From Vulcanimicrobiota bacterium (lineage in GTDB: Bacteria; Vulcanimicrobiota; Xenobia; Xenobiales; JADMJV01): a DNA stretch of 64,000 nucleotides. A model generated the notes under the pieces. That model worked only from the letters and a program-made list of their open reading frames with translations, did no database searches and had not been told where the DNA came from. Of this stretch, positions 29,666 to 29,688 are shown piece by piece; within the stretch, counting starts at the first letter, position 1, and every line of letters starts with the position of its first letter. The stretch covers positions 14,510 to 78,509 of the forward strand of contig JBJHCR010000001.1 of the NCBI GenBank assembly GCA_050486105.1, given 5' to 3'. The position numbers and the translations under genes were made by a program.

Positions 29666-29688
29666 AGTTCCGAATCCATTCCGAATTC
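29666..29688 (+). promoter_or_regulatory. Direct repeat ATTCCGAAT-cc-ATTCCGAAT (11-bp periodicity) in the divergent promoter region. It is a candidate SARP/operator site.
   Basis: gttccgaatccattccgaattcg is seen here. The same arrangement recurs at 36562-36584. Coordinates approximate. Confidence 0.45.

Follow-up and report, generated by a model that had tools for sequence, protein, structure and literature searches.

A SARP-type tandem box at predicted leftward promoters in a kinase/FHA-SARP locus of Xenobia (Vulcanimicrobiota)

Which protein reads a tandem repeat that occurs twice in one locus of an uncultivated bacterium, and which of the genes on either side does it serve? The locus lies in 64,000 nt of a Vulcanimicrobiota bacterium contig (JBJHCR010000001.1, positions 14,510 to 78,509; the whole stretch is hereafter called the window), where two copies of a 9-mer with an 11-bp period stand in each of two intergenic regions. 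A first-pass annotation had read this repeat as a control site of a gene for an annexin-domain protein labelled a peptidase and of an operon encoding a membrane Ser/Thr protein kinase, an FHA-SARP regulator and a GspF-type protein. We consider it probable that the tandem repeats are SARP-type activator boxes at the -35 position of two promoters that run leftward, away from those genes, and that the FHA-SARP protein is their most likely binder. Comparisons among genomes and the predicted structure of the regulator both speak for a SARP operator, but the predicted promoters reverse the assignment of its targets.

In the window, the repeat reads gttccgaatccattccgaattcg at 29666-29688 (site 1, + strand) and cattccgaatcgattccgaatga at 36562-36584 (site 2, + strand), and both the letters and the shared orientation agree exactly with the first-pass annotation. 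Site 1 lies within the 123-bp gap between a minus-strand gene for a protein of 374 amino acids (aa; ATG 29631) and the gene of the 1243-aa annexin-domain protein (ATG 29755), and site 2 lies between a minus-strand repeat-protein gene, with its ATG placed at 36505, and the kinase gene (GTG 36705), so that both sites are divergent intergenic regions. On the + strand of the window, TTCCGAAT-N3-TTCCGAAT occurs exactly at 29668-29686 and 36564-36582 only, and the pattern TTCCGAATNNNTTCCGAAT, with its 16 specified bases, is found at the same two places only, even when up to 3 mismatches are allowed. At that tolerance, 4 matches were observed, including the near-palindromic reverse reading of each site, against a shuffle mean of 0.64. 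The lone 9-mer is unenriched (18 observed against 12.9 expected in the window with at most 1 mismatch), and what departs from chance is the arrangement in tandem. Apart from the box and the opening bases of a -10-like hexamer, the two sites have unrelated flanks; thus the box is not part of a dispersed repeat. An Rfam search of the whole window gave zero matches. Read on the minus strand, box 1 (29667..29686) is ATTCGGAAT-gg-ATTCGGAAC and box 2 (36563..36582) is ATTCGGAAT-cg-ATTCGGAAT, each consisting of two 9-mers with an 11-bp period and, in box 1, predicted to cover about -41..-22. A third TTTCGG-type element (tcgCCGAAA, + strand) lies at 29687-29695, past the distal repeat of site 1, and is kept at 7331-7338 of a related locus (L026); it was rejected as a third repeat, since its distance from its neighbour is 9 bp rather than 11 bp, which puts it out of register with the 11-bp period.

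Homologous loci of the regulator gene were fetched from assemblies, genomes and metagenomes, with genome records that name Candidatus Xenobia and Vulcanimicrobiota; they carry L numbers here, and L026-L030 were obtained through the 374-aa gene. Across these related loci there are about 16 sites with the core TCCGA-N6-TCCGA. An exact-motif scan of the first two related loci found no match, and relaxed scans were needed. Boxes with at most 2 mismatches in 16 positions are present in L001 (two), L002, L003/L004 and L006, all of them intergenic, and these near-exact boxes have position weight matrix scores of 22-30 bits, while shuffles of all 434 kb gave 0-5 matches at or above the 14-bit threshold. 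The core-only search adds sites in L013, L015, L016 and L017, the L018 site was found through homology of the downstream gene, and the L009 site, in a locus whose regulator is only 33% identical, emerged from a de novo search for 11-bp repeats. The core pair matches 14 times at 11-bp spacing against 0-2 times at each other spacing in the range 7-15, which bears out the strict 11-bp periodicity of the direct repeat. Conserved across diverged genomes, with box and regulator gene co-occurring, the motif is a genuine shared cis-element, and in L002, L003/4, L006, L009 and L013 it precedes the regulator gene itself at a distance of no more than about 100 bp. Two further TCCGA pairs, at window position 37201 inside the kinase gene and at L018 position 3920, which is coding by a crude mask, have no -10 and were treated as chance.

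The larger set of sites also clarifies the symmetry of the repeat. The first-pass annotation had noted that each 9-mer is itself nearly palindromic, which is true of the letters, and with 14 sites the conservation inside each 9-mer is indeed roughly symmetric about the central base; a provisional asymmetry drawn from 7 sites, with a conserved CCGAAT and a variable left part, was rejected for this reason. As a functional reading, the palindrome fares less well. When half-sites are oriented by the -10 and read on the transcription strand, the central base is G in 27 of 28, and there are 13 direct pairs as against 0 and 1 in the two inverted classes with opposite central bases. The valid asymmetry of the repeat is hence that its central base is invariant and that inverted pairs are essentially missing. 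Oriented by transcription, the consensus of the 14 sites is nTCGGAAn-N3-nTCGGAAn, with TCGGA in 25-27 of the 28 half-sites.

An indication of direction comes from the position of the box relative to a -10-like hexamer. We aligned 12 sites on the box and scored both flanks at offsets 0-39. On the TCGGA strand, at an offset of exactly 9 nt past the 20-nt box, TAnnnT is present in 6 of the 12 sites and a relaxed -10 (T at the sixth position with A at the second or T at the first) in 11, while TAnnnT is counted only 0-1 times at any other offset in the range on that strand. The hexamers at this offset are TACACT, TATGAT, TAAGCT, TAATCT, TAAAGT, TTCAAT, TTAGAT, TACATT, TCCACT, CAAACT and CATACT, and downstream of each there is a start codon, usually with a ribosome-binding site (RBS) between. 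In L002 (9905-9925), L018 (12098-12118) and L026 (7361-7380), the ATG follows only 6 nt past the predicted -10, which implies leaderless mRNA from these predicted box-dependent promoters. The composite CGGA-N7-CGGA-N11-[TC]AnnnT, searched in 507 kb, matches only boxes that were already in our set of sites. In the window, the predicted -10 hexamers are TACACT (29652..29657, minus strand; a consensus assignment, with a predicted start near 29645 followed by the RBS GGAGG) and TATGAT (36548..36553, minus strand; predicted start near 36541), each 9 nt downstream of its box and each with an RBS and an ATG further on.

This predicted arrangement is that of a SARP promoter, in which direct repeats lie 11 or 22 bp apart and the 3' repeat lies 8 bp from the -10 (PMC10936776). 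Here the direct repeats are 11 bp apart and, with the predicted -10, the 3' repeat lies about 8 bp from it and the box covers the -35 and spacer region. In the AfsR complex, the afs box covers -40..-19 and contacts are made to the first 8 bp of each 11-bp repeat only (PMC10936776); taking the hexamer as -12..-7 puts the conserved 8-mers at about -40..-33 and -29..-22, and so the predicted register of the box is the same as that of the AfsR afs box in the SARP-RNA polymerase complex. The -35 hexamer is weak or absent: neither intergenic region of the window has a sigma-70-type -35/-10 pair, and the -35 positions read AATGGA and AATCGA by inspection. The GGAA cores were also tried as a -35 element for sigma-70 or an extracytoplasmic function sigma factor and were rejected, as they lie 10 and 21 nt from the -10 and misfit a spacer of 16-18 nt. 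Given that the conserved geometry is on the minus strand, we predict that the window boxes serve the 374-aa gene and the repeat-protein gene, which encodes 114 aa, rather than the annexin-peptidase gene and the kinase/FHA-SARP/GspF operon to which the box had originally been assigned.

Both predicted targets could be followed outside the window. Box 1 is predicted to serve the gene of the 374-aa all-helical protein (28507..29631, minus strand). Homologues of this protein form only seven clusters, and loci were fetched through two of them. In L026-28, as in the window, the 374-aa homologue and the annexin gene (here 1280 aa) diverge, and the promoter of the former reads TTTCGGAAC-gg-ATTCGGAAT, 9 nt, TATGGT, 6 nt, ATG; this box is the sole perfect core pair in each locus of 17-18 kb. 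L026 and the regulator locus L006 belong to the same metagenome-assembled genome, GCA_030149525.1, on different contigs. In L029/L030, CTTTCGAAT-cg-ATTCGGAAG is followed after 9 nt by TACTCT in front of a 375-aa gene, the annexin gene lies downstream of this gene on the same strand, no divergent gene is nearby, and the nearest upstream gene, 530 bp from the box, is also on the same strand. The box is thus kept before the 374-aa homologue after rearrangement, which indicates that it travels with this gene and shares its orientation. Box 2 is predicted to serve a gene (36161..36505, minus strand) for a 114-aa protein with a CHPDSQCPEC motif and two 23-aa repeats, and its homologue in L001 (85 aa) has the box in the same relative orientation, with CHPDSQCPxC common to both proteins. 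The box is likewise kept in the family L001_231 / L002_201 / L018_245, in the family of the small open reading frames (ORFs) L013_80 / L003 / L006 and, more weakly, in L001_352 / L017_277.

The 374-aa gene and a gene of about 1250-1300 aa with annexin domains are always adjacent (window 28507-33486, L026 3465-8511, L029 10001-14976), divergent in the window and L026-28 and in tandem on one strand in L029/L030, and this constant adjacency suggests a functional pair. The predicted model of the 374-aa protein consists of stacked helical bundles, and a structural search with it returned no informative match.

The candidate binder is encoded at 38013..39413 (+ strand) and has 466 aa, with a beta-rich N-terminal region followed by an FHA domain, an OmpR-type winged helix and a BTAD domain. 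Pfam finds the FHA domain (E 2.1e-8, residues 138-205; the domain spans 121-213) and BTAD (PF03704, E 1.4e-9, residues 343-453), and the winged helix-turn-helix (wHTH) lies between them at about 222-330. No winged-helix match in the regulator came from Pfam, even when the linker between FHA and BTAD was searched alone, nor from phmmer against the PDB; this part of the protein was settled by an AlphaFold model with Foldseek and by a family profile. The model, built on a 22-sequence alignment, has a mean predicted local distance difference test score (pLDDT) of 77, and above 87 over most of 220-466. Residues about 220-466 (~260 residues) match the SARP structure of AfsR (8hvr_I; E 2e-9, target template modelling score 0.69) and the same C-terminal region matches EmbR (2fez; E 5e-9), while in the family profile residues 217-317 align to the EmbR winged helix (7-104) with E 3.5e-5. 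Fold match and profile match together identify the regulator, at the level of a predicted model, as a true SARP module with an FHA domain in front of it. The earlier statement that a SARP-type regulator is encoded in the locus therefore stands on the AfsR and EmbR matches, whereas a Pfam wHTH match is not available to rely on. The regulator family is small, with 22 clusters, for which the sources give just two names: 'Candidatus Eremiobacteraeota bacterium' at NCBI, and at JGI 'DNA-binding SARP family transcriptional activator'. The phosphothreonine-binding signature of the FHA domain (GR, SxxH, NG) is invariant in the 22 homologues, and the recognition-helix region RGRKNLSY..QLK is nearly invariant in the family, which matches the invariant TCGGA core of the box; the conservation of core and recognition helix alike extends down to 33% protein identity.

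The regulator operon begins with the gene of the membrane Ser/Thr protein kinase (36705..37985, + strand), which presumably provides the input of the FHA domain. Kinase and regulator genes are adjacent in the window, Pkinase genes were likewise called close to the regulator gene in L001, L003/4, L005, L013, L014, L015, L016 and L017, and none was called in L002. Upstream of the kinase start codon, by 30-50 nt, we observed a second conserved element, approximately ATAGCAC-N7-10-G(A/G)AGGA(C/T)G, in five diverged loci (window 36652-36682; L001 7175-7205; L003 6334-6362; L005 13873-13900; L013 2590-2616), which may be the kinase operon's own promoter or leader element.

Based on these observations, we propose that the promoter consists, in the direction of transcription, of ATTCGGAAT-NN-ATTCGGAAn, 9 nt, TAnnnT, a short leader and ATG, and that box 1 would drive the 374-aa helical-protein gene (28507-29631) and box 2 the 114-aa Cys-motif repeat-protein gene (36161-36505). 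Two FHA-SARP protomers might bind side by side, one per repeat and on the same face of the DNA, and might recruit RNA polymerase as AfsR does at the afsS promoter, in which case the box would serve activation rather than repression. The adjacent membrane Ser/Thr kinase could set the activity of the regulator through its FHA domain, as proposed for PknH-EmbR. Because the box lies in a divergent region, its occupancy may in addition modulate the rightward promoters, namely those of the annexin gene and of the kinase/FHA-SARP/GspF operon, the latter being a form of autoregulation.

Several observations weigh against this model and bring other explanations with them. The -10 calls rest on an E. 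coli-type consensus, applied here to a phylum with uncharacterised promoters. In the available sequence of L005, L007, L014 and L019-L021, no recognisable box was found, whether with a single-repeat-plus-(-10) pattern, by de novo search for 11-bp repeats or under a crude coding mask; the regulators in these loci are 40-46% identical and some of the contigs are short. A candidate site in L015 (11662-11681) is without a -10, and a candidate in L008 has a -10 and no ORF downstream. Box frequency is known from the window and the fetched loci rather than from complete genomes, and most loci were fetched through the regulator gene, so that the co-occurrence of box and regulator is partly built in; only L026-L030 escape this. 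The latter point, together with the fact that binding by the FHA-SARP is predicted from sequence, also speaks for a genuine activator site that is bound by another winged-helix protein encoded elsewhere, such as an OmpR/PhoB-family response regulator, with the FHA-SARP as a mere neighbour. Pho-box-type sites share 11-bp direct repeats that replace the -35, and geometry alone can therefore not name the binder. We nevertheless regard a different binder as unlikely, given that no response regulator (Response_reg plus Trans_reg_C) or other DNA-binding protein is conserved across the fetched loci, that the sole other regulator gene in the window is a TetR gene (12540-13082), that the boxes are closely grouped about the FHA-SARP gene, in many cases immediately in front of it, and that box core and recognition helix are conserved together. 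Slightly less probable still is a + strand reading of the boxes, in which they would activate the annexin-peptidase gene with the pseudopilin-like operon behind it and the kinase/FHA-SARP/GspF operon, all to their right. The boxes are upstream of both genes, 68 and 122 nt from their starts, the gene on the rightward side is the regulator in L002, L003, L006, L009 and L013, as would suit autoregulation, and on this strand TAnnnT lies exactly 15 nt beyond the box in 3 of the 12 sites (window site 1, L001 and L003/L006), preceded by TGn in L001 and L003/L006. This TGnTAnnnT regularity is weaker and involves 3-5 sites, and on its account the box may also act on the rightward genes; in the window it provides a possible -10 for a divergent annexin-gene promoter (TAAACT, 29702..29707, + strand), which is a weaker call. 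Such a hexamer would set the proximal repeat at -35..-28, yet the repeat would then be 15 nt from the -10 instead of the ~8-9 nt of SARP promoters, window site 2 has TTCCAA and no TAnnnT at this offset, 3 of 12 compares poorly with the strict and relaxed counts on the leftward side, and L029/L030 keep the leftward-type geometry before the 374-aa homologue with nothing divergent.

Two other explanations fare worse. A near-perfect 20-bp palindrome (ATTCnGAATC/GATTCnGAAT) that serves as the operator of a symmetric dimeric repressor of both divergent genes could account for the rough symmetry of the 9-mer and for window site 2, whose reverse complement departs from it at just 2 of the 20 positions. 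We hold it to be very improbable in view of the oriented central G and the near-exclusive use of direct pairs described above, as well as the 2-3 nt between the repeats, which are not conserved as a dyad centre, and the lack of any dimeric helix-turn-helix repressor gene conserved in the loci. Chance recurrence, or a piece of a dispersed repeat or mobile element, has only the short length of the motif in its favour and is effectively refuted: an exact 16-base match in 64 kb is expected about 3e-5 times (128,000 positions / 4^16) and two were seen, a tolerance of 3 mismatches still yields only the two places with their unrelated flanks, and the box recurs at orthologous promoters in more than 10 diverged genomes.

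Beyond the proposed leftward activation by the FHA-SARP, we speculate, with considerable reserve and as a reading less likely than not, that this protein might be a phosphorylation-sensing directional switch at back-to-back promoters in a lineage far from actinomycetes, with one side-by-side dimer on a single box activating the leftward promoters that lack a -35 and occluding or re-tuning rightward promoters of the extended -10 type. If true, the leftward output would be the helical partner of the annexin-like giant protein and small Cys-motif proteins, and the rightward output the annexin/pseudopilin operon and the regulator's own kinase operon. Such a switch would tie a GspF/pseudopilin/SecA2-like export apparatus to the signal of a membrane Ser/Thr kinase, and a SARP regulon would for the first time be defined for something other than the control of antibiotics or the cell wall.

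The remaining genes provide the context of the locus. The gene of the 1243-aa annexin-domain giant protein (29755..33486, + strand) always stands next to the 374-aa gene, and the geometry does not favour it as a target. In the C-terminal third of the protein (window 32455-33483), for which Pfam gave no family match, papain-like catalytic motifs QRGTCAAATIQF and GDGGHAVSVMGF are visible, and the label 'peptidase' is plausible on the basis of these letters. Three genes at 33567..36140 (+ strand) encode proteins of 538, 134 and 196 aa with prepilin-like N-termini (GFSLGE, GLTLAE) and are conserved in related loci, where each locus has the triple (~500, 130 and 190 aa) once or as two paralogous copies, in many cases divergent from the kinase gene (window 33567-36140; L001 5718-7061 and 13274-15817; L005 11432-13812; L013 160-2583). 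A T2SSF (GspF/PilC-type) platform protein gene follows downstream of the regulator gene at 39410..40447 (+ strand). The window holds two SecA genes, at 24944-28510 and 42488-45163 (both + strand); the canonical SecA has 891 aa and a SEC-C motif, and the divergent paralogue has 1188 aa with an N-terminal extension of ~200 aa, its 3' end overlapping that of the 374-aa gene. Two genes of the Uma2 family (putative restriction endonuclease-like) at 23696-24823 (+) and 45176-45778 (-) bracket the secretion/regulator cluster, and a CHAT-domain protein gene lies at 58-3186. ARAGORN reports a 95-nt 'tRNA-Asp' (anticodon atc, 52484-52578, minus strand) inside the ORF of an SLH-domain protein (51089-53920), which is probably a false positive. 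In L003 (12637-19473) and L004 (8450-14856), a CRISPR-Cas set with Cas8b, a Cas3-like helicase and a Cas4-Cas1 fusion, probably of type I-B, adjoins the regulator/GspF cluster.

To our knowledge, SARPs have been studied almost only in actinomycetes, as switches of antibiotic synthesis, and our literature search found nothing on SARPs in Vulcanimicrobiota or on SARPs with an N-terminal FHA domain, nor any prior description of this box or regulon. The present analysis describes a SARP-type box, the FHA-SARP that probably binds it and a predicted regulon, small and conserved, all of which can be read directly from metagenomes of uncultivated Xenobia (Vulcanimicrobiota/Eremiobacterota). It also connects a pseudopilin/GspF/annexin-like gene cluster that is poorly understood with a presumed input through a Ser/Thr kinase and an FHA domain. 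The reassignment of the targets matters in practice, as the earlier assignment would misdirect reporter and footprint work. Overall, the finding is a clean, testable regulon in an uncultivated lineage and not a new principle.

Pho boxes and other sites of the OmpR family are 11-bp direct repeats that replace the -35 and are bound head-to-tail by winged-helix domains. Unlike these, the box here has a candidate binder under the presumed control of an FHA domain and a Ser/Thr kinase rather than a histidine kinase, and no receiver-domain regulator is conserved in the loci. The heptameric repeats of pathway-specific SARPs such as ActII-ORF4, DnrI and RedD resemble the box in that they run in the same direction, are spaced by 11 or 22 bp and end in a 3' repeat ~8 bp from the -10, but their consensus, TCGAGxx, differs from the box described here and the proteins are small SARPs without a sensor domain. 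The regulator itself is reminiscent of EmbR-PknH of Mycobacterium tuberculosis, with a SARP domain fused to an FHA domain, phosphothreonine-binding residues intact, and a transmembrane Ser/Thr kinase gene beside it. EmbR is a SARP whose FHA domain is needed for interaction with and phosphorylation by PknH, the kinase gene is in the same operon, and the in vivo relevance of the pair in M. tuberculosis is debated; a binding motif or consensus of EmbR for comparison is not given in that source (PMC9239209). The FHA domain is C-terminal in EmbR and N-terminal here, ahead of wHTH and BTAD instead of in the order wHTH-BTAD-FHA, an extra beta-rich region precedes it, and identity is about 19%; the regulator is thus EmbR-like in its logic while lying outside the EmbR architecture. 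From AfsR and its afs box at the Streptomyces coelicolor afsS promoter (PDB 8HVR/8K60), our system differs in the repeat sequence, which is unrelated (TTCGGAAT), in a regulator without NOD/TPR domains and with an N-terminal FHA domain instead, in a host that is an uncultivated member of the Xenobia and not an actinomycete, in predicted targets that are small proteins of unknown function in a pseudopilin/GspF locus rather than antibiotic genes, and in binding that is predicted here. What the two share is the arrangement of two direct repeats with an 11-bp period, the predicted placing of their 8-mers relative to the start, a poor or absent -35 and the wHTH+BTAD fold of the regulator.

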